Shown piece by piece: positions 5,395 through 63,913 of a stretch of 64,000 nt of DNA (within the stretch, counting starts at the first letter, position 1; each line of letters starts with the position of its first letter). The notes below the pieces were generated by a model. The model was given only the letters and a program-made list of their open reading frames with translations, was not told the DNA's origin and did no database searches. The stretch comes from an uncultured Bacilli bacterium (GTDB lineage Bacteria > Bacillota_I > Bacilli_A > RF39 > UBA660), in the NCBI GenBank assembly GCA_934129885.1, contig CAKOWU010000004.1, positions 857 through 64,856 of the forward strand, written 5' to 3'. The position numbers and the translations under genes were made by a program.

Positions 5395-6354
5395 ATGACT
5401 TTATTAAAAACTGAAAAGATAGAAAAACAAGAAATATCTAAATCAAAAACATCATCTAAAATCAAACCAAAAGGAGATAAAATTATTCCCGGTATATTTG
5501 ACGGGTTATTTAAAGCGTTAATTCAAAGTAATGAATTTAGAAAATGCCTTTATATTATACTAGTCACTTGTACTCATTTTACTATGAGCGAGGTAATAGA
5601 CAAAATAAGATTTTTAAATACCGAACTCAAGAAAGAAAAGTACAAAGAGAAAGGTAAGATAACTGATATTTTAATCGATATTAGTGGGTATACCATAAAT
5701 ATCGAAGCAAATACTAGTGATACAAAGTCATTAAGACTTAAAAATCATAATTATCACCATAAAATATCAACTGAACGATTTAGTACGGGCAGTGAGTTTG
5801 ATGATAAGTATGTCTATCAACTTTCTTTTGAAAGTGTAAGAAAGTTTGATGATAGAATATATCTTACTTTCACTCTAAAAGACGAAGAAAGTAAATATTC
5901 TGACGAAGAAAATTTCAAAAGAGTTTATATTTGTATAGCCAAAGCAGCCGAAAAGTATTATAATAATATTGAGTTATCAAAGTTTGAAAAGATACTTGTT
6001 ATGTTACAAAGTACAAGTAGAAAAGAACTTTTTAGACTTGCTGAAGGAGATGAAGATCTAATGGATATGGCAAAGAAGATAGATGATTTAAATACTGACG
6101 AAAATATTATTGGTTTGTATGATGAAGAAAAGATGAAACAGGCAATGTATAATTTTGATATTAAAGAGGCAACAGCCAAGGGAAAAGAGGAAGGACTTGC
6201 TGAAGGAGAAAGCAAAGGTATTGCCATTGGAAAAGAACAAGGAGGTAATGAAAAAGCAATAACTATTGCCAAAAAACTTCTTGAAGACGGAATGGATATT
6301 TCAAAAGTTGCCAGTATAACTGGACTTAATGAAGACGATATTACGAATTTGTAA
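5395..6354 (+). CDS. Rpn/YhgA-like PD-(D/E)XK nuclease / putative transposase family protein
   Basis: It has a strong RBS (aaaggagg). The N-terminal 'FDGLFKAL' and 'ILIDISGYTINIEAN' resemble the Rpn (transposase_31) core. The C-terminal 'GKEEGLAEGESKGIAIGKEQG..AKKLLEDGMDISKVASITGL' is a tail typical of this family and is shared with the ORF at 44781. Confidence 0.6.
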   Translation: MTLLKTEKIEKQEISKSKTSSKIKPKGDKIIPGIFDGLFKALIQSNEFRKCLYIILVTCTHFTMSEVIDKIRFLNTELKKEKYKEKGKITDILIDISGYTINIEANTSDTKSLRLKNHNYHHKISTERFSTGSEFDDKYVYQLSFESVRKFDDRIYLTFTLKDEESKYSDEENFKRVYICIAKAAEKYYNNIELSKFEKILVMLQSTSRKELFRLAEGDEDLMDMAKKIDDLNTDENIIGLYDEEKMKQAMYNFDIKEATAKGKEEGLAEGESKGIAIGKEQGGNEKAITIAKKLLEDGMDISKVASITGLNEDDITNL

Positions 6355-6438: not shown

Positions 6439-6585
6439 ATAGCCAAGGCAGCCGAAAAGTATTATAATAATATCGAATTATCGAAGTTTGAAAAGATACT
6501 TGTTATGTTACAAAGTACAAGTAGAAAAGAACTTTTCGGGCTTGCTGAAGGAGATGAAGATCTAATGGCTATGGCAAAGAGGATA
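6439..6585 (+). pseudogene. A roughly 150-bp partial duplicate (about 95% identical) of the internal region 5935-6083 of the upstream Rpn-like gene
   Basis: Direct DNA comparison shows that it encodes 'AIAKAAEKYYNNIELSKFEKILVMLQSTSRKELFGLAEGDEDLMAMAKRI*', matching residues of the ORF at 5395. It has no start codon. Confidence 0.6.
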
Positions 6586-6882: not shown

Positions 6883-8124
6883 ATGGAGCATGTATATGCT
6901 AGTATTGATATTGGTAGTGATGCAATAAAACTTGTTGTTTGTGAACTATATAATGGCAATTTGAATTTACTAGCGGCATCTTCCGTACCATCAAATGGAA
7001 TAAAAAAAGGATTGATTATAGATCCTGAACTTGCCAAAGAGTCAATAAGCAAAGCCTTTGATGAGGTAAAAGCAATGCTTGGCTTCGAAGTAAAAGAAGT
7101 AATTGCTTCTGCTGCTTTATATAAAGTGGAATACAAAGTTGTAAAAAGTGATTGTGATGTTAAAGGTGATTTAATTACTGCTAGTGAAATTAATACTTTA
7201 TATAAAAGAGCAGTTAGAGATAATCTAACCAATAATAAGGAGTTTGTTACCCTCTACCCAATTGACTTTATCATTAATGGTAAAAATAAAATGATAGATC
7301 CAAAAGGTTTCCCTGGAACAAAACTTTCTTCTAGATGGATGATGATATCTCTTCCTAAAAAGAATTTATACTCTGTTGCCAGTATTTTAGAAGACTTAGG
7401 AATAGAAATTGTAGACATATCTGTTAGTAGTATCGGTAATTATTGCTTAAGTAAAAATGAAAAACATAGAGATGCAGTAGGCTTTATCATTGATATGGGC
7501 AGTGAGACTACAACTATAAGTCTATATAATAAAGGCGTCCCTATCGCTTCCAAAGTCATTGGTATGGGCGGACGCGATATTGATTCTGACATCTCTTACA
7601 TGTATAAAATAGACATAGATGAGGCAAAAAAAATAAAACACAGATTTGTTAGATGTTCAAAGAAGTATATTAACCCTGATGATTATTATGAGATTACTAA
7701 TGAAAAAGGCGAAGTAATCAAAATTAATCAGGTCGAGGTAAGTGAAATTGCTACGTCTAGAATGGAAGAGATAATTTCTTTAGTAAAAAATGAAATTAAC
7801 CTCTTAACAAATAAGCCAATTCAGTATATAATATTAACTGGTGGTACCAGTAACCTTAAAGATTTAAACAAACTGGTATCTAGAATATTAAATTCTAAAA
7901 CTGAAACAGAAAAGATTAAACTTATTGGTGTTAGGAATAACAAATATTCAGTAGCCCTTGGTAACATTATTTATTTTACTGACAATTTGAAATTAAAGGG
8001 GCAAGATTTTACAATGCTAGAGAATGATGATATGGAAGTGTTGTCATCACCAGATAAGCATTTTGTAGACACTTCAAATGAGACAATGCTGGGTAAAGTG
8101 TTTGGATACTTTTTCGGCGAATAG
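6883..8124 (+). CDS. ftsA: Cell division protein FtsA
   Basis: It has an actin-like ATPase fold. The N-terminal 'ASIDIGSDAIKLVV' and 'ILTGGTSNLKDL' are FtsA hallmarks. The RBS is 'taggagga', and ftsZ lies immediately downstream. Confidence 0.9.
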   Translation: MEHVYASIDIGSDAIKLVVCELYNGNLNLLAASSVPSNGIKKGLIIDPELAKESISKAFDEVKAMLGFEVKEVIASAALYKVEYKVVKSDCDVKGDLITASEINTLYKRAVRDNLTNNKEFVTLYPIDFIINGKNKMIDPKGFPGTKLSSRWMMISLPKKNLYSVASILEDLGIEIVDISVSSIGNYCLSKNEKHRDAVGFIIDMGSETTTISLYNKGVPIASKVIGMGGRDIDSDISYMYKIDIDEAKKIKHRFVRCSKKYINPDDYYEITNEKGEVIKINQVEVSEIATSRMEEIISLVKNEINLLTNKPIQYIILTGGTSNLKDLNKLVSRILNSKTETEKIKLIGVRNNKYSVALGNIIYFTDNLKLKGQDFTMLENDDMEVLSSPDKHFVDTSNETMLGKVFGYFFGE

Positions 8125-52516: not shown

Positions 52517-54146
52517 TTGCCGATAGTAATTGATAATTTTTCTAATATAATTAATGACGAATTTTACTATGTACACAAAACTAAAGCAATAGAAGAGTTG
52601 CTTGATAGTAGAGGGGAAGTAAAATCATTTCCTCGCCCTAGGAAATTTGGTAAAACATTGTTTATGTCAACACTAGAAAACTTTTTTGATATAGATAAAA
52701 AAGATGTTAACAAGGATTTATTTAAAGGCTTATACATAAATAATACTAAATATAAAGATGTACAAAATACATATTCTGTGATAAGCATGTCTTTAAAAAG
52801 TCTTAAACAAAGAACATTTAAAGATGTAATAGAACAGTATAAAATATTAATCGCAAGTATTTATGATAAAGATATGTTCTTGAGTGTTTGGAAAAAGAAA
52901 AAAAATATACAATAAAATTTTATCTAAAACGAGTGATATGGGTGAACTTAAAGATTCAATATTATTTTTAAGTAACTGTCTATATAAGTATCATAATAAA
53001 CAAGTAATTATTCTAATAGATGAATATGATGTACCAATACAAGAAGGCTATTTGGACGGCTTTTATGACGAGATAATAGATTTTATGAAATCATTTTTAT
53101 CAAATACTTTGAAATCAAATGATTATCTTAAAATGGGTATTTTAATTGGTGTTTTTAAAGTATCTAAAGAAAGTATATTTAGTGATTTAAATAATTTAGA
53201 AGTATATAGTATTATAGATGATAGTTATGAGGAATATTTGGGCTTTACAGAAAGTGAAACTAAAGAATTACTTGAGTATTATGATTTGTCTTTAACCAAA
53301 AAGGTAAAAGAAATGTATAACGGCTATGATTTTGGTGGAACTCCAATATATAACCCTTGGAGTATACTTAATTATGCCAAAAGAATAATAATGGATGCAT
53401 ACTTGGTAAACACAAGTGGCAATGACTTAATAAGAAGTTTGCTTTTAAAAACGGATGGTGCAAATAAATCGCAATTAGAAAAACTTGCTTTAGGTAATAG
53501 TTTAACTTTTACATATGATGATAAAATAACATATCAAGACTTTAATGATTACAATAATATAAATACAATACTTAATATTATGTTTTCATCAAGCTATCTT
53601 ACGGTAGATAAAAGCATGGATACAGATGACGAGTTAATATACGCTAAAATACCAAATTTAGAGGTGAAAAAATTAATTACATGTATAATAGCTAACCTAA
53701 CAGACACCAATAGTTATAATAAAATACTTAATGAGGTAATATTATTTAACAGGGCTTTAAAAGAATATGATAAAAAAGAACTTGAAACCTTACTTAATAA
53801 AATGTTTGCATCTTTATCATATATGGATAGTCAAGAATACTTCTATCATGCGTATACTTTAGGTATCTTTAAATCATTACTAGATAATAGTGACTATATT
53901 ATAAAATCAAATAGAGAAGCCGGCAGTGGTAGATTCGATGTAATGATAAGAAAAACAGATAATAGCGTAGGGTATGTAATAGAGTTTAAACTAGCAAGCG
54001 CTGAAGAAGAAATGGAAACAAGCGCGAAGGACGCTATTAACCAGATGAAAGATAAAGAATATTATAAAGAACTAGAACTTGAGGGAGTAAACGATATAAA
54101 GGAAATTGCTATGGTATTTCATGGTAAAAAAGTAATTGTAAGATAA
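52517..54146 (+). pseudogene. AAA-ATPase-like (PF09820-type) N-domain + PD-(D/E)XK (DUF1703-type) C-domain protein, split by a frameshift in an A8 run (52898-52905)
   Basis: 'YYVHKTKAIEELLDSRGEVKSFPRPRKFGKTLFMSTLENFFD' is the family N-terminal signature. The C-terminus 'REAGSGRFDVMIRKTDNSVGYVIEFK' is the PD-(D/E)XK core. Deleting one A joins '...SVWKKKK' to 'IYNKILSKTS...'. Confidence 0.6.
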
Positions 54147-54150
54147 AGTG

Positions 54151-58296: not shown

Positions 58297-58789
58297 GAAA
58301 GCCTTTACCTTACTTGAACTGCTCGCGGTTATTATAATCATTGCCATCCTTGCACTTGTAACCGTGCCTACCGTAACCAACATCATAAAAAACTCTAGAA
58401 ATTCTACCTTTCAAGATAGTGTGCATGCTCTCTATAAATCTGGCGTGAGTTATCACGAAGAAAGCACAATTAACTCAAGCATAAAATTGCCACTCGTCGT
58501 AAAATTTACAAACAAAAAAGTCACATATTATACTCAGAGTGAAGATAAAACCGCTTGTGAGACTGCCACAGTTACAAATAGTAACGAACTAGAATATAGT
58601 GGTCAAAATCTAGAAGATGCAACATTGACTATTACAAAAGAGGGCACTATTAATATTGCTGCTTGGAATAAAAATGATAAATCTTGTTACCAAATCACCA
58701 GTGATAGTAAAAAAGTTATCAAACTAGAAAGCATTAAAAATAAAGCCGCCTGCAGCATAGATATTAACGCTATATGCACATCAAAATAA
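58290..58789 (+). CDS. Type IV prepilin-like protein, related to the ORF at 51306
   Basis: The RBS is GGAGGAG and the signal is 'MNKKA|FTLLELLAVIIIIAILALVTVPTVTNIIKNSR'. A terminator lies at 58790-58822. Confidence 0.7.
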
Positions 58790-58850
58790 ACATAGAGCCT
58801 ATCTATGTTTTTTATTTTTTCTATCGTCTTGCAAAAAACACCCCATAATG

Positions 58851-58871
58851 TTATCATTAATATGGTGATAA
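58851..58871 (+). promoter_or_regulatory. Palindromic operator-like site TTATCA-N9-TGATAA between the -10 region and the RBS of nifS
   Basis: It was read directly. Confidence 0.3.
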
Positions 58872-58874
58872 TTT

Positions 58875-59981
58875 ATGACATATTTAGATTATAGTGCAAC
58901 TACACCAGTAGATGACGAAGTATTAAAAACATTTGTAAAAGCCTCAAAATATATAGGCAACCCTAATTCACTTCACAAACTAGGTATAAATGCCAAAGAA
59001 CTAATAGACGCTAGTACAAATCAAATTGCAAATATCCTTGGCGTAAAAGCGAACGAAATAATATATACATCTGGAGCATCCGAAGCTAACAATACTGTTA
59101 TTAAAGGTATAGAAAACTATAAAAGCAGAGGTAACCATATAATAACAACCAACCTAGAACACTCATCAATATATGGACCTTTAAAATATATGCAAGACCG
59201 TGGCTATGAAATATCATACGTTCCTTTAAAAAACGGATTAGTAGATATGGATGCCCTAGAAAACATGATAACAGATAAAACAGTACTCGTAACTATAAGT
59301 GCTGTAAATAGTGAAACAGGCGTTAGACAAAATATTGAGCAAATAGGACAGATGTTAAAAAAATATCCTAAAGTAATATTTCATAGTGATATAACGCAGG
59401 CTGTTGGTAAAATAAATATTGATTTAGCAAATGTCGATCTAGCATCTTTCTCAGCCCATAAATTCTTTGGTATAAAAGGAATAGGGGCTTTAATAAAAAA
59501 AGAAAATATAACCCTAACCCCTTTAATAGCGGGCGGTAAAAGCACAACTGCGTATAGAAGCGGTACACCACCAACATCTCTAATCGCCAGCATGGCTAAA
59601 GCTCTTAGATTAGCACATGAAAACTTAAACGTTAAATATGTAGAAGAGTTAAATAATAAAATAAAAAGTAAACTAAAAACCTATGAAAAAGTGCATATCA
59701 ATAGTAATGAATTTTCAGTACCTCATATCTTAAATTTTAGTATTTCAGGCGTAAAACCAGAAACCTTTCTTCATGCTTTAGAAGAAGATGAAGTATATAT
59801 ATCAACCCAAAGTGCTTGTGCTAAAGGTAATAGCTCCAGATCTGTTTTAGCACTTACCGGTAGTGAGGACCTCGCCACAACTAGCCTTAGAATAAGTTTG
59901 TCCATTAAAACAACCATGCAAGATGTAAATCGGTTTTTAGATAGTTTTGATAAAAATTATAGAAAGTTGGTTATAAAATGA
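58875..59981 (+). CDS. Cysteine desulfurase (NifS/IscS-like class V aminotransferase)
   Basis: The PLP-lysine motif 'SAHKFFGIKGIGAL' and 'LDYSATTP' are present. Confidence 0.85.
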   Translation: MTYLDYSATTPVDDEVLKTFVKASKYIGNPNSLHKLGINAKELIDASTNQIANILGVKANEIIYTSGASEANNTVIKGIENYKSRGNHIITTNLEHSSIYGPLKYMQDRGYEISYVPLKNGLVDMDALENMITDKTVLVTISAVNSETGVRQNIEQIGQMLKKYPKVIFHSDITQAVGKINIDLANVDLASFSAHKFFGIKGIGALIKKENITLTPLIAGGKSTTAYRSGTPPTSLIASMAKALRLAHENLNVKYVEELNNKIKSKLKTYEKVHINSNEFSVPHILNFSISGVKPETFLHALEEDEVYISTQSACAKGNSSRSVLALTGSEDLATTSLRISLSIKTTMQDVNRFLDSFDKNYRKLVIK

Positions 59982-59982
59982 G
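59959..59982 (+). repeat. Left copy of a perfect 24-bp direct repeat, ATAGAAAGTTGGTTATAAAATGAG. It spans the nifS 3' end and the ATG of the LRR-like gene.
   Basis: It is identical to 62146-62169. Confidence 0.8.
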
Positions 59983-62149
59983 CGAAGCAAATGCATGGAT
60001 AGACATGATAACAAAATTATATACTCATCTGCATGAGTCAGATGCAGTAATGCATACCTCTAATGAAAATACAAAGAAAAGAGAAAGAATATATAAATAC
60101 TTTGAAAGATTAGAAAGAGTACATAATAAAGTTTCAAATAGTAAAAATAAATCATCAGAACTATTACTTAAAAAATTTTATTATGATATGTATGTTGTAA
60201 AACCAGAAAATATTCCAGATAGTTACTTTCAAAATGAACAAAGAATAATGCGAGAAAGAGGGTATGGCAACGTTGAATTAACATCAGAAAGAAAACAAAT
60301 ACTAATAGATCAAATAATATCCGATCAAAAAGAAAGCCTTGATAAATGGATTGAATATTTTCTTTACGACGAAGAAAGTAAATCATATGAAATGTGGGAG
60401 AAATATTGGGTATTTCAAGGACTACAAAAACTAGGGAAATTTGATAAAGAAAAAATGAAATTTTCCAAAAGAGATAAAACAACAGTTTATCCGTTCCCAC
60501 CAGTAGAAAGAGAAGCCATATTTAGTACTTTGAAACTAATGGAAGACTATATAAAAGGTAAAGATACTGAAGAAGAAATAAGAAATGCTTTGGGTAGTGG
60601 AAACTTTAAAACTTTATACGAATATTCCATGAAACAAATGATGCAAAAAGGAGAAAAGCAAAATAATGCTACCGAAGGTAAATGGGTTAAATATGAACAA
60701 GGTTCTGATTATAATTTACTAAGAAACTCACTCCAAGGCTATTATACAGGTTGGTGTACTGCCGCCGGTGAAAACTTTGCTAAAGGACAGTTAGCAAATG
60801 GAGACTTCTATGTTTATTACACCATGGATGAAAATAATGAACCTAAAGTACCTAGAATAGCCATAAGAATGGACGGAAAGGACACCATAGGAGAAATAAG
60901 AGGCATCGCAGATAATCAAAATATGGAGCCAGAAATGATGCCTATATTAAATGAAAAATTAGAAGAATTTCCAGATAAAGATAGATATCAAAAGAAAGAA
61001 TACGATATGCAATACTTAACATCCATAGACAGAAAAGTAAAAAAAGGTATTGAACTATCTGTAGATGAATTAAGGTTTTTATATGAAATAGACAGCGAAA
61101 TTGAGGGATTTGGATATCGAAAAGATCCTAGAATAAAAGAAATAAAGTCTAATAGAGATAAATATGAAGATTTAGCAAAAATATTTAATTGTACTAAAGA
61201 TGAAATATCAGACGATAAAAATGATGTTTTAAGTGGTAAGAAATTAGTGTATTTTCATGGTGACCTTGATTTGGAAGAATTAACCACTGCCGAAGGACTT
61301 GTTTTACCAGAAAAAATAGGCGGCTATTTAGACTTGCGCGGATTAACCAGTGCCGAAGGCTTAGTCTTGCCAAAAGAAATAGGTGGAACTCTTTACTTAA
61401 ATAGCCTAACAAGTGCCGAAGGCTTAGTTTTTCCAAAAGAAATCGGTGAAGCTCTTTACTTAAATAGCCTAACCAGTGCAGAAAACTTAATCTTGCCAGA
61501 GAAATTAGGAAGCGATCTTGGTTTAAATAGCCTAACAAGTGCCGCCAGTTTAATTATGCCAAAAGAAATAGGTGGAACTCTTTACTTAAATAGCCTAATA
61601 AGTGCCGAAAGTTTAGTTATGCCAAAAAAAATTGGTGGAACTCTTCACTTAAATAGCCTAATAAGTGCCGAAGGTTTAGTCTTGCCAGAAGAAATCGGTG
61701 TAACTCTTCGCTTAAATAGCTTAACAAGTGCCGAAGGCTTAGTCTTGCCAGAAAAAATAAATAATTCTCTTTGCTTAGATAGTCTAACAAGTGCCGAAGG
61801 TTTAGTTATGCCGAAAGAAATCGGTGGAACTCTTCACTTAAATAGCCTAACAAGTGCAGAAAACTTAATCTTGCCCGAGGAATTAGGCGGTGATCTTTGG
61901 TTAAATAGCCTAACAAGTGCTGACGGTTTAGTTATGCCAAAAGAAATCGGTGGAACTCTTTACTTGGAGGGATTAACCACAGTCGATGGTTTAATGTTAC
62001 CAGAAAATTTTGATTTAGATAACTTGATTATTGATGAATCACTTGAAGAAGAAATAATGCCAAACCCAAATAAATACTATAGACATCCAGAAATCACTCA
62101 AAATGATATTTTAAATAATAGTAAAACGGAAGTTCATAAAACAAGATAG
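59978..62149 (+). CDS. Cytoplasmic protein with an unknown ~430-aa N-terminal domain and 12 tandem 21-aa LRR-like repeats (consensus LyLNSLTSAEGLVLPKEIGGT)
   Basis: It has no signal peptide. Its ATG is shared with the nifS stop (ATGA). The repeats are near-identical at the DNA level. The N-domain motif 'YYTGWCTAAGENFAKGQLANGDFYVYY' was not recognised. Confidence 0.55.
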   Translation: MSEANAWIDMITKLYTHLHESDAVMHTSNENTKKRERIYKYFERLERVHNKVSNSKNKSSELLLKKFYYDMYVVKPENIPDSYFQNEQRIMRERGYGNVELTSERKQILIDQIISDQKESLDKWIEYFLYDEESKSYEMWEKYWVFQGLQKLGKFDKEKMKFSKRDKTTVYPFPPVEREAIFSTLKLMEDYIKGKDTEEEIRNALGSGNFKTLYEYSMKQMMQKGEKQNNATEGKWVKYEQGSDYNLLRNSLQGYYTGWCTAAGENFAKGQLANGDFYVYYTMDENNEPKVPRIAIRMDGKDTIGEIRGIADNQNMEPEMMPILNEKLEEFPDKDRYQKKEYDMQYLTSIDRKVKKGIELSVDELRFLYEIDSEIEGFGYRKDPRIKEIKSNRDKYEDLAKIFNCTKDEISDDKNDVLSGKKLVYFHGDLDLEELTTAEGLVLPEKIGGYLDLRGLTSAEGLVLPKEIGGTLYLNSLTSAEGLVFPKEIGEALYLNSLTSAENLILPEKLGSDLGLNSLTSAASLIMPKEIGGTLYLNSLISAESLVMPKKIGGTLHLNSLISAEGLVLPEEIGVTLRLNSLTSAEGLVLPEKINNSLCLDSLTSAEGLVMPKEIGGTLHLNSLTSAENLILPEELGGDLWLNSLTSADGLVMPKEIGGTLYLEGLTTVDGLMLPENFDLDNLIIDESLEEEIMPNPNKYYRHPEITQNDILNNSKTEVHKTR
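61265..62020 (+). repeat. Twelve tandem 63-bp coding repeats
   Basis: Periodicity was read directly. Each unit encodes one 21-aa LRR-like repeat. Confidence 0.8.
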
Positions 62150-62169
62150 AAAGTTGGTTATAAAATGAG
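62146..62169 (+). repeat. Right copy of the 24-bp direct repeat. It contains the stop of the LRR-like gene and the comEB start.
   Basis: It is identical to 59959-59982. Confidence 0.8.
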
Positions 62170-62644
62170 AATAGATAAAACAAATTATTATTTAGATTTA
62201 GCGGAAACTATTCTAGAAAGGGGTACCTGTTTAAGAAGGAACTATGGTGCCGTAATAGTTAAAAATGATGAAGTAATCTCTACTGGCTACACAGGGGCCC
62301 CAAGAGGTAGAGCCAACTGCATTAATTTAAATAAATGTATAAGAGAAGAACTTAATATTCCAAAAGGGCAGAGATACGAACTATGTCGTAGTGTCCATGC
62401 TGAGCAAAACGCTATTATCTCGGCACCAAGGCGCGATATGATAGGAAGTACTCTTTATCTAGTTGGAAAAGAATATAAAACAAATAAATATGTAGAGGGT
62501 GCGACACCATGTGAACTTTGTAAAAGGTTTATAATCAACGCTGGTATTGAAAATATAATAATCAGAGATACCAAGGATAAATATAGAACTATAAAAGTAA
62601 GTAAATATATTCAGCATGATGACACGATAAAAGAAACCATATAA
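62165..62644 (+). CDS. comEB: dCMP deaminase (ComEB-type cytidine/deoxycytidylate deaminase)
   Basis: The Zn-binding motifs 'CRSVHAEQNAI' and 'PCELCKRFIINAGI' are present. A terminator at 62647-62675 lies downstream. Confidence 0.85.
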   Translation: MRIDKTNYYLDLAETILERGTCLRRNYGAVIVKNDEVISTGYTGAPRGRANCINLNKCIREELNIPKGQRYELCRSVHAEQNAIISAPRRDMIGSTLYLVGKEYKTNKYVEGATPCELCKRFIINAGIENIIIRDTKDKYRTIKVSKYIQHDDTIKETI

Positions 62645-62656
62645 AAAGCAGAACAA

Positions 62657-63913
62657 TTATTGTTCTGTTTTTTCTTTACTAGACATACTTATCGTAATAT
62701 ATTCATTTTTAGAAATAATTGTTCCCTCATTTATACTTTGCCCGCTTGCAATTGTATCTAAAGAAGTTACGTTATCCGAAAACTCAAGTAAACATTTAAT
62801 ACCAAGTTTATCGCACGTTTTTAAAACCATATCTGAACTTTTAGAACTAAAATCAGGAACCGTTACCCCTTTACCTTTAGATACCGTCAAAGTAACCGTG
62901 TCTTTATTAGAAACATTAGAATCTACCGGCACTGATGAATTAATAATATATCCAGCCTTTACATTAGACGAGAATTCATAAGTAGTATCATATTTTATTC
63001 CGTTCCTCTTTAAATATACACTAGCGGATAAATAACTTTCATTATATAAATCCTTCATTTTAATATCTTTCAAATTAGAAGCATCTCCTAAAGAAACATT
63101 AAATTCCACTAAAGTATTTCTTCTTATATCGCCACTAACACTTTGAAAAGTAATCGTATCTCTATCTACATCTTTATTTTCTACATAATTAATATTAACA
63201 TTGTTTAACCTATATTGCTTTATCATTTTAAGTGCCATATCAATATCTTTACCAGTCATATTTGGAATATTAACTTCTTTATGTGTATCTGTACCATTAG
63301 AAACTACATAATTAATACTAGATACATCCTTTACAAACTCTCCAGCATTAATGCTTTGACTTATAACAGAGCCTTCATTAACTTCATCTGAATATTCGTA
63401 AGTAACCTTTGCCTTCACATTATTATCATCAGACCATTTTAAAACTTTTTTATAAGAAACGTCATAAAAATTAGGTACTGTCTTTTGAGCTGGTAAATTT
63501 ATAATGCCCATTATATATAAAGCATTAAATAAAACAAATAGGGTAGTAAACAAAGCCGTCACTAGCGTACCGCGCACTCTTTTATACATAAATGCATGTT
63601 TAAAAGAAACTAAATAACTGATCATAATTATTATTATAAATATGGCATTTAAAATATAATATAATTCGTTAACTTTTTCACTAGAAACATAAATAAGCAA
63701 AAAACAAAACGCTACCACTAAAACAAACAATATCGATAAAAATACATTAGTTGCCGTCGGCTTTCCGGTCATCTTAAAATTAATAAAATCTTCGTCCATA
63801 TCCTCATTGAAAACTATTTTCCTAAGTTCTTCGCGCTTTTGGGCAAGTTCCTCTTCTTTTTTTGTTTGCATCTCGCGTCCTTCGTATCTACTAACACGGC
63901 TTTTATACTCCAT
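62657..63913 (-). CDS. Membrane-anchored PASTA-domain protein (no kinase domain)
   Basis: The N-terminal cytoplasmic region is followed by a TM segment and then 3-4 PASTA-like repeats ('KVTYEYSDEVNEGSVISQSINAGEFV', 'TLTVSKGKGVTVPDF'). The start is at 'MEYKS', with a GGTGAGGTG RBS. Confidence 0.6.
   Translation of the reverse strand: MEYKSRVSRYEGREMQTKKEEELAQKREELRKIVFNEDMDEDFINFKMTGKPTATNVFLSILFVLVVAFCFLLIYVSSEKVNELYYILNAIFIIIIMISYLVSFKHAFMYKRVRGTLVTALFTTLFVLFNALYIMGIINLPAQKTVPNFYDVSYKKVLKWSDDNNVKAKVTYEYSDEVNEGSVISQSINAGEFVKDVSSINYVVSNGTDTHKEVNIPNMTGKDIDMALKMIKQYRLNNVNINYVENKDVDRDTITFQSVSGDIRRNTLVEFNVSLGDASNLKDIKMKDLYNESYLSASVYLKRNGIKYDTTYEFSSNVKAGYIINSSVPVDSNVSNKDTVTLTVSKGKGVTVPDFSSKSSDMVLKTCDKLGIKCLLEFSDNVTSLDTIASGQSINEGTIISKNEYITISMSSKEKTEQ

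Follow-up and report, generated by a model that had tools for sequence, protein, structure and literature searches.

Template switching at microhomologies (fork stalling and template switching, FoSTeS; microhomology-mediated break-induced replication, MMBIR) and short-homology tandem duplication leave joints at microhomologies of 3–5 nucleotides (nt), place a stretch of the target on both sides of the new DNA, require no element-encoded enzyme and yield duplications of variable length. A broadly similar picture, with putative microhomologies at the joints, is presented by an insertion in the stretch analyzed here (the window; 64,000 nt of contig CAKOWU010000004.1, from an uncultured Bacilli bacterium), where a single open reading frame (ORF), hereafter X, stands between a nifS-like and a comEB-like gene and is flanked by two copies of a 24-nt direct repeat, hereafter J. 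A second insertion of an X-family gene, in a metagenome contig, carries a duplication of 18 nt. Unlike template switching as described, the window insert is exactly one ORF with both ends at translation signals, the duplicated segment is a reused module of ribosome-binding site (RBS) plus start codon, and one gene family is involved twice.

Other described systems correspond to the locus in part. Transposons and insertion sequences (IS) likewise leave direct repeats of host sequence around the insert and empty sites in relatives, and typical IS target-site duplications measure 2–14 nt; the unit in the window, by contrast, carries no transposase (X is its sole ORF) and no terminal inverted repeats, and the repeat, at 18–24 nt, has no fixed length. 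Integron cassettes share with X the layout of promoterless, co-oriented, ORF-sized units behind a host promoter, a repeat at the unit boundary and a copy number that varies by strain. However, neither an IntI integrase nor an attI site was found near the window locus (Pfam families, about 7 kb on each side), the units all belong to one family of paralogues, unlike the unrelated genes of integron arrays, and where the integron attC site is an imperfect palindrome of 57–141 nt, the boundary here consists of host coding and RBS sequence in duplicate, 22–24 nt long and with no palindrome. Phage morons and free-standing homing-endonuclease genes also appear as one extra gene set precisely between conserved neighbors that are adjacent in relatives, but morons carry their own promoter and terminator, of which X has neither, and X differs from both in its lack of a nuclease domain, its chromosomal host and the near absence of its family from viral contigs. 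Amplification by unequal crossover, as at contingency-like loci for repeat proteins, resembles the locus in its strain-variable numbers of copies and internal repeats, its near-identical copies and the fast evolution of X; it covers the afterlife of the insertion and not its origin, and the array here differs in lying within a housekeeping operon with each copy coupled by J.

Set against these systems, the locus fits a microhomology-mediated insertion followed by tandem amplification, its unusual features being the reused translation module and the recurrence in one family. In a limited search of the literature, no description of an ORF-precise insertion that duplicates a gene junction was found.

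A duplicated junction between nifS and comEB

The window contains exactly two copies of the 24-mer ATAGAAAGTTGGTTATAAAATGAG, at 59959–59982 and 62146–62169 on the forward strand, spaced 2187 bp apart. No third copy is present in the window even when 3 mismatches are allowed, the number of copies expected from shuffled sequence is 0, and among exact direct repeats at spacings of 300–10000 bp the 24-mer is the longest in the window, bar an unrelated duplication of ~120 bp near 6 kb. The left copy comprises the 3′ end of nifS, namely its last 7 codons and stop (YRKLVIK*), together with the Shine–Dalgarno (SD)-like element AGAAAGTTGGT and an ATGA stop/start overlap in which the nifS TGA overlaps the ATG of X. 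In the right copy the stop codon of X (TAG, 62147–62149) is followed by the SD-like element and then by the comEB start codon, ATG. Because the X stop lies inside the right copy, just as the X start lies inside the left one, the insert is ORF-precise at both ends. X itself (59978–62149, forward strand) encodes 723 aa and is the whole ORF content of the unit, and the inserted DNA proper (59983–62145, 2163 bp) is not distinguished by its G+C content. The flanking genes, both on the forward strand, encode a 368-aa protein of the class-V aminotransferase/cysteine desulfurase family (nifS, 58875–59981; Pfam Aminotran_5, E=4e-67) and a 159-aa dCMP/cytidine deaminase-like protein (comEB, 62165–62644; Pfam dCMP_cyt_deam_1, E=4e-15).

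An initial sequence-only reading of this stretch had pointed out the repeat, its composition of terminal nifS codons and a stop overlapping an ATG that starts X on the left and comEB on the right, and a unit of exactly one ORF that begins at its very edge. Window searches, mismatch-tolerant searches and shuffles bear out the two exact copies, the composition and gene content stand as described, and the precision extends to the 3′ end of the unit. The proposal that the inserted gene reuses a host start codon also holds, the X ATG in left J being the former comEB ATG, and within the window, at two copies, the 24-mer is not a common repeat.

The same reading had anticipated that relatives would preserve an empty site, with nifS followed directly by comEB. 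Such sites were obtained from a scan of genome contigs (all at or below 75% identity among the matches listed) and from look-ups of nifS homologues. A sister species (L093–L096, e.g. GCA_963598985.1), whose nifS is 78% identical to that of the window, is syntenic with the window species across RF1, PrmC, two unknown genes, two pilin-like genes, nifS, comEB, PASTA, SpoIVB and CotE. At its junction X is absent, nifS and comEB overlap by ATGA, and a single copy of J is present (...TATAGGAAGTTGGTTTTAAAATGAGAATAGATAAA, also given as ...GATAAGAATTATAGGAAGTTGGTTTTAAAATGAGAATAGATAAAAAT). Both J copies of the window match this X-less sequence at 22 of 24 positions, nifS coding codons included. Two more distant relatives (L012 and L013, about 70–75% identical) have the same nifS/comEB ATGA overlap and lack the inserted DNA, and in three others (L019, L048 and L079) comEB lies directly downstream of nifS. 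Relatives are thus not uniformly filled, and since those without X carry a single copy of the junction, the 24-mer is duplicated host sequence, made up of the nifS 3′ end and the comEB start. These comparisons show an ancestral nifS/comEB ATGA overlap, with the RBS region of comEB contained within the last nifS codons, at which the X coding sequence was inserted. On their evidence the duplicate is the right J copy, and a single gain in the window lineage is the parsimonious reading. A 375-aa nifS variant (P0123) was considered as an alternative junction and rejected, its junction sequence being identical and the difference merely another gene call.

The exact extent of the duplication can be bracketed from other strains. 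The 22-mer TAGAAAGTTGGTTATAAAATGA is identical at 27 of 27 junctions in 16 sequences, whether nifS to X, X to X or X to comEB, and only these inner 22 nt of J are invariant; at either end of the 24-mer, the terminal base differs in other strains. Since the outer bases could equally derive from X (its ATGA start and TA(G) stop), the true duplication measures 15–24 nt, a refinement of the junction-duplicating insertion as first proposed.

Several features suggest what J does. The SD-like element is placed six bases before the ATG, and the predicted pairing of J with the anti-SD sequence (the Firmicutes type, taken from general knowledge) has an energy of −10.7 kcal/mol, a strength reached by no more than 2% of 19-mers drawn at random from the window. 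A promoter-like site upstream of nifS (TTGCAA-17-TATCAT, TG-extended, 58829–58857, forward strand), recognized by consensus match only, is the likely driver of a nifS–X–comEB unit. The sole terminator-like site detected in 58600–62800 is a hairpin, AAAAAGCAGAACAAT/ATTGTTCTGTTTTTT, at 62643–62673, between the convergent comEB and PASTA genes. No terminator-like site was found between nifS, X and comEB, and within the array no promoter-like site rose above the 9 of 12 matches expected by chance, which shows X to be without a promoter or terminator of its own. From this organization we infer that J serves as the translation-initiation region of both X and comEB and that nifS, X and comEB form one coupled transcription unit.

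A side observation concerns the reading frame. The gap from stop codon to next ATG is 15 nt in the window (62147–62167) and at each X-to-X junction in three further sequences (L002, L004 and L176), so that the X copies and comEB share one frame, with only one TAG followed by five sense codons (KVGYK) between one coding sequence and the next. Were the TAG read through, X would be joined to the protein that follows; frame sharing of this kind has a chance probability of one in three.

Strain variation and relatives of X elsewhere

Every contig with an identical comEB (24) or an identical nifS (22) is filled with X, and no within-species empty site was seen among them; X is fixed across all sampled strains. 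What varies is the array. Some strains carry one X gene, of 723 or 810 aa, and others carry two (702 and 744 aa, or 723 and at least 665 aa); in one Hadza sample there are at least two X genes, and the assembly breaks within the array. Tandem copies are 0.2% apart in L176, a recent duplication, and 4% apart in L002. Nucleotide divergence amounts to 2–8.5% among X copies, 1.4–2.4% for nifS and 0.4–1.3% for comEB, so X evolves 2–4 times faster than the flanking genes, and its amino-acid divergence is as high as its divergence at four-fold sites. Concerted evolution of J was considered and set aside: at an X divergence of 2–8%, 22 nt would be expected to accumulate fewer than 2 changes, and identical J copies therefore give no significant indication of gene conversion.

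The locus displays the features of tandem amplification by unequal crossover, namely a copy number that differs between strains, one junction sequence repeated at every unit boundary and, in some genomes, copies that are nearly identical. After the insertion, unequal crossover is probably driven by J, by the near identity of the X copies and by the 63-bp repeats inside X; its outcome would be loci with one or at least two X genes in tandem (J-X-J-X-J) and leucine-rich repeat (LRR) numbers that vary by strain.

The sequence-only reading had also suggested a search for X-like genes in other surroundings, and relatives are indeed present in other contexts. A screen for repeats that link the start and stop regions of X genes covered 78 metagenomic loci. 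Apart from array spacers, the single-copy gene that scored was one, at L145:3920–6185 (metagenome contig JAEEGL014858091.1); the other single-copy X genes of the screen gave only chance matches of 6–9 nt. The L145 gene encodes a protein 49–51% identical to X and lies between genes for a MurF-like ligase and a PlsC-like acyltransferase. In relatives with the empty site (L183:6340–6380, L184, L185 and L186), whose ligases are 82% and 79% identical, the two genes are 8 nt apart, X is absent, and the junction reads ...ATAAAGTAGGTGATATCATGAGAGAA. The filled site reads AAGTAGGTGATATCATGA|CTATAG on the left, at the X start, and ...AGTAGAAGTAGGTGATATTATGA|AAGAG on the right, at the PlsC start. Its repeat, AAGTAGGTGATAT(C/T)ATGA, is 18 nt long with one mismatch and covers the upstream stop, the SD element and the ATG(A), and the X stop codon (TGA) again falls inside the right copy. 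The anatomy is that of the window while host, site and repeat length are all different, and L145 is an independent event. Junction-duplicating insertions thus number 2, the window and L145, among about 25 contexts outside the DUF308–X–RmuC locus.

That locus, between DUF308 and RmuC in other gut Bacilli, accommodates X homologues that are 60–65% identical and that have their own promoter-like leader and terminator. It holds 1–3 tandem copies (L007:4063–6001, L103, L106, L110, L124 and L129), and the protein lengths step by exactly 21 aa (738, 759, ... 906). In one species group the duplication joint falls exactly at the X TAA and the copied segment includes the DUF308 3′ end and a 113-bp leader. 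A rule that all joints fall at the X stop codon was rejected, as the tandem-duplication joint of another group (L117:3033–3155) follows the X terminator. The window itself contains neither a second X copy nor a DUF308/RmuC locus.

Relatives of X are for the most part standalone genes that have their own promoter and terminator, at various loci that include DUF308–X–RmuC; two further homologue contexts illustrate both situations, P0065 as an ordinary standalone gene and P0076 as a gene at the DUF308 locus. At L172:1970–11571, four tandem X-family genes are separated by SD-containing spacers of only 17–18 nt, and the product of each finishes in a hydrophobic stretch that may be a tail anchor; these transmembrane tails are unlike the soluble-looking X of the window. 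Viral contigs are almost devoid of the family, with 4 weak matches in 2.9 M. A close donor of X was sought and none was identified, the nearest relatives outside the species being about 55–65% identical overall. Among these, L133 and L142 (55–57% identical) share the C-terminal tail of the window clade (...VHRTR*), and their coding sequences start with ATGAAC and end with ...ACTAGATAA; on this basis the homology of the window X to L133 and L142 spans exactly start codon to stop codon.

How X may have entered the junction

On balance we lean towards a rare, microhomology-mediated insertion that was kept because it preserved both neighbors and was then amplified by unequal crossover. A single illegitimate event guided by microhomology (a template switch during replication, or an unequal exchange) would have departed from the target after ATGA(G), continued in the donor from the ATGA of X itself, switched out of the donor at the ...AGATA(A) stop of X and resumed in the target 15–24 nt upstream, at ATAG. 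Judged from L133 and L142, the 5′ joint would share about 4–5 nt with J (ATGA/G) and the 3′ joint about 3 nt (ATA). At a junction without a spare base, only products that duplicate the stop, the RBS and the start would keep nifS intact and comEB translated. The donor terminator, which starts 10–45 nt after the stop codon in relatives and would silence comEB, would have to be excluded as well. Selection for working nifS and comEB would in this way account for the fact that the product observed, rare as it may be, has a long flanking duplication and ORF-precise ends.

Other observations bear on whether an enzyme took part. No transposase, integrase or nuclease was found in X or among the Pfam families of the genes called within about 7 kb on either side. 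No terminal inverted repeats pair the ends of the insert (59983 onwards and up to 62145), and J is not palindromic. The duplications of the two events measure 24 and 18 nt, which non-enzymatic joints fit better than a fixed staggered cut, and the L117 joint, in following the terminator, indicates that joints at stop codons are not obligatory. The suggestion that had accompanied the discovery of the repeat, of an unusual integration mechanism or a cassette-like element, consequently fares unevenly: no recombinase, terminal inverted repeat or attC-like site speaks for it, and a second insertion with the same anatomy does.

A number of points weigh against the microhomology-mediated insertion. 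Its mechanism is deduced from the joints, and with no donor more than 75% identical, the proposed microhomologies derive from distant relatives. The insertions in the window and at L145 are each ORF-precise at both ends and each duplicate the host RBS and ATG, a regularity that exceeds what random breakpoints and selection obviously predict, above all at the 5′ joint, where a longer donor leader should have been tolerated too. The X family alone was examined, and such insertions may be general in these genomes or specific to X. Finally, every sampled strain is filled, and reversal of the insertion by J–J recombination is hypothetical.

The alternative to which we would give the most weight, while still considering it unlikely, is a Campbell-type integration, in which a circle of one ORF and one spacer, released from a tandem X array, underwent a single crossover with the comEB RBS region. 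Tandem arrays with RBS spacers of 17–25 nt do exist (L172 and L151), circles derived from them would be ORF-precise, RBS regions of the X family resemble the targets (GGTGATA in L145; GAAAG..TGGTTA..ATGA in L133 compared with J), and later copy gain at the locus would be accounted for. A circle should, however, leave its foreign spacer in one of the two copies unless the spacer were already identical, whereas both J copies are identical over 22–24 nt and of host type (22/24 against the sister species), which makes it implausible for the primary event. Similarly slim are the chances that X ORFs are promoterless mobile cassettes handled by a dedicated trans-acting machinery, integron-like or else new and site- or structure-specific, that targets junctions of RBS and start codon and duplicates them. 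The likeness of the window and L145 events, both ORF-precise, operon-oriented, with the initiation region duplicated and the X stop in the right copy, is what such a machinery would produce; the J-X-J-X-J array form agrees with it, as does the absence of this pattern from the literature found in our limited search. Yet there is no integrase or transposase in X or within about 7 kb, what the two repeats have in common is limited to ATGA and a generic SD, their lengths are unequal (24 vs 18 nt), and neither an attC-like palindrome in J nor terminal inverted repeats in the insert are present. Most members of the family, moreover, are ordinary standalone genes at stable loci, the cases amount to just 2 in about 25 contexts outside DUF308–X–RmuC, and viral contigs nearly lack the family. 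We regard as no less doubtful the corresponding proposal that the cassette copies a host RBS-plus-start module, so that it captures the translation start of the downstream gene and returns a duplicate to that gene.

A true target-site duplication is a poorer prospect still. Here an enzyme supplied in trans, a nuclease or an integrase (casposase/Cas1-like, restriction-like or topoisomerase-like), would make a staggered double-strand cut with nicks 18–24 nt apart, and fill-in would then enclose a linear ORF fragment that had been captured. The insert is indeed bracketed by perfect repeats of host sequence in direct orientation, and flanking repeats longer than those typical of insertion sequences are seen for Cas1-family integrases; no gene for such an enzyme is nearby, though, the insert lacks terminal inverted repeats or conserved ends, the duplication length differs between the two events, and the capture of exactly one ORF would be left unexplained. 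We consider it very improbable that X and both J copies are ancestral and that the empty relatives arose by precise J–J deletion. Recombination between repeats of 22–24 nt would restore a perfect empty site, and loss could not be told from original absence by the site itself, but the sister species and at least four more species of growing distance (L012, L013, L019, L048 and L079) have no X at the junction, which would call for several independent losses against one gain. The relatives of X in other genera, furthermore, occupy different loci with their own signals, and the origin of the duplication would still have to be explained. Only the AT-rich composition of the sequence speaks for a chance repeat or an assembly artefact; with zero copies expected and the structure assembled independently in many metagenomes from different studies, the likelihood of either is negligible.

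The locus offers a clean natural example, with its empty site known, of a foreign gene entering a junction that has no spare base by duplicating stop, RBS and start. Three genes would become translationally chained, and the duplicated module makes an expandable array inside a housekeeping operon. The recurrence in one family may reflect either a general route by which the operons of compact low-GC genomes grow, overlooked so far, or a mobility specific to that family.

The X protein and the surrounding genes

X matches no model in Pfam, NCBIfam or PADLOC at curated cut-offs, and a PDB sequence search returned none. PHROGs gave one weak match over the repeats, to an entry of unknown function (E=7e-5). 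The Pfam LRR families do not match X either, the sole hint being a sub-threshold SlrP match for an X homologue, and a Foldseek search of the full X model against the PDB found no match. The protein divides into two parts. The N-terminal alpha/beta domain of about 420 aa (59978–61267, forward strand) has a core that, in the structural model, weakly resembles the GNAT fold; its invariant residues are W259-C260 (within TGWCTA), R293, E306, D383 and R385. The LRR region (61279–61979, forward strand) consists of about 11 tandem 63-bp units that encode 21-aa repeats of the form LxLxxLTSAEGLVLPKEIGGT, and as modelled the C-terminal part is a true LRR solenoid of 21-aa units. An exact 18-mer, TTAATTATGCCAAAAGAA, is shared between one of these LRR units (61550–61567) and an unrelated ORF 8 kb upstream (53368–53385); in coding sequence as AT-rich as this, the match probably arose by chance.

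Reading of the sequence gives no N-terminal hydrophobic stretch, and X is probably a cytoplasmic protein. Its role is possibly one of conflict or recognition. Building on the modelled folds, we hypothesize that X is a GNAT-like putative enzyme directed by a fast-evolving LRR region. The family is large: a search of 1.84 billion representatives with the N-terminal 430 aa retrieves 1895 clusters (50% identity; E<=1e-3), and the 90% database contains over 2900 matches. A family of this size that matches no Pfam, NCBIfam or PADLOC model searched, that joins a GNAT-like domain with an invariant cysteine to hypervariable LRRs and that is common in human-gut Bacilli merits attention in its own right.

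The neighborhood holds other differences between the window species and its sister species. Within the same syntenic block (L001 compared with L093:8690–11767), the window species has two further single genes that the sister species lacks, both just past the right end of the window: an NAD-dependent epimerase gene between PASTA and SpoIVB (L001:7872–8879) and an Amidoligase_2 gene between SpoIVB and CotE (L001:10080–10979). The region upstream of RF1 is a variable spot, occupied in the window species by AAA-ATPase_like/PDDEXK_9 genes (about 52880–54150; L175:643–2272) and in the sister species by genes for a 608-aa protein of unknown function and an HA-domain protein instead (L093:1–2225). The ~120-bp duplication near 6 kb involves the 3′ part of the ORF at 5395–6354, which is present twice (5944–6064 and 6448–6568), 504 bp apart and with a few differences. 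Its downstream copy, which may represent a pseudogene remnant or the duplication of part of a gene, is placed ahead of the ORF at 6883, where the sequence is otherwise non-coding.

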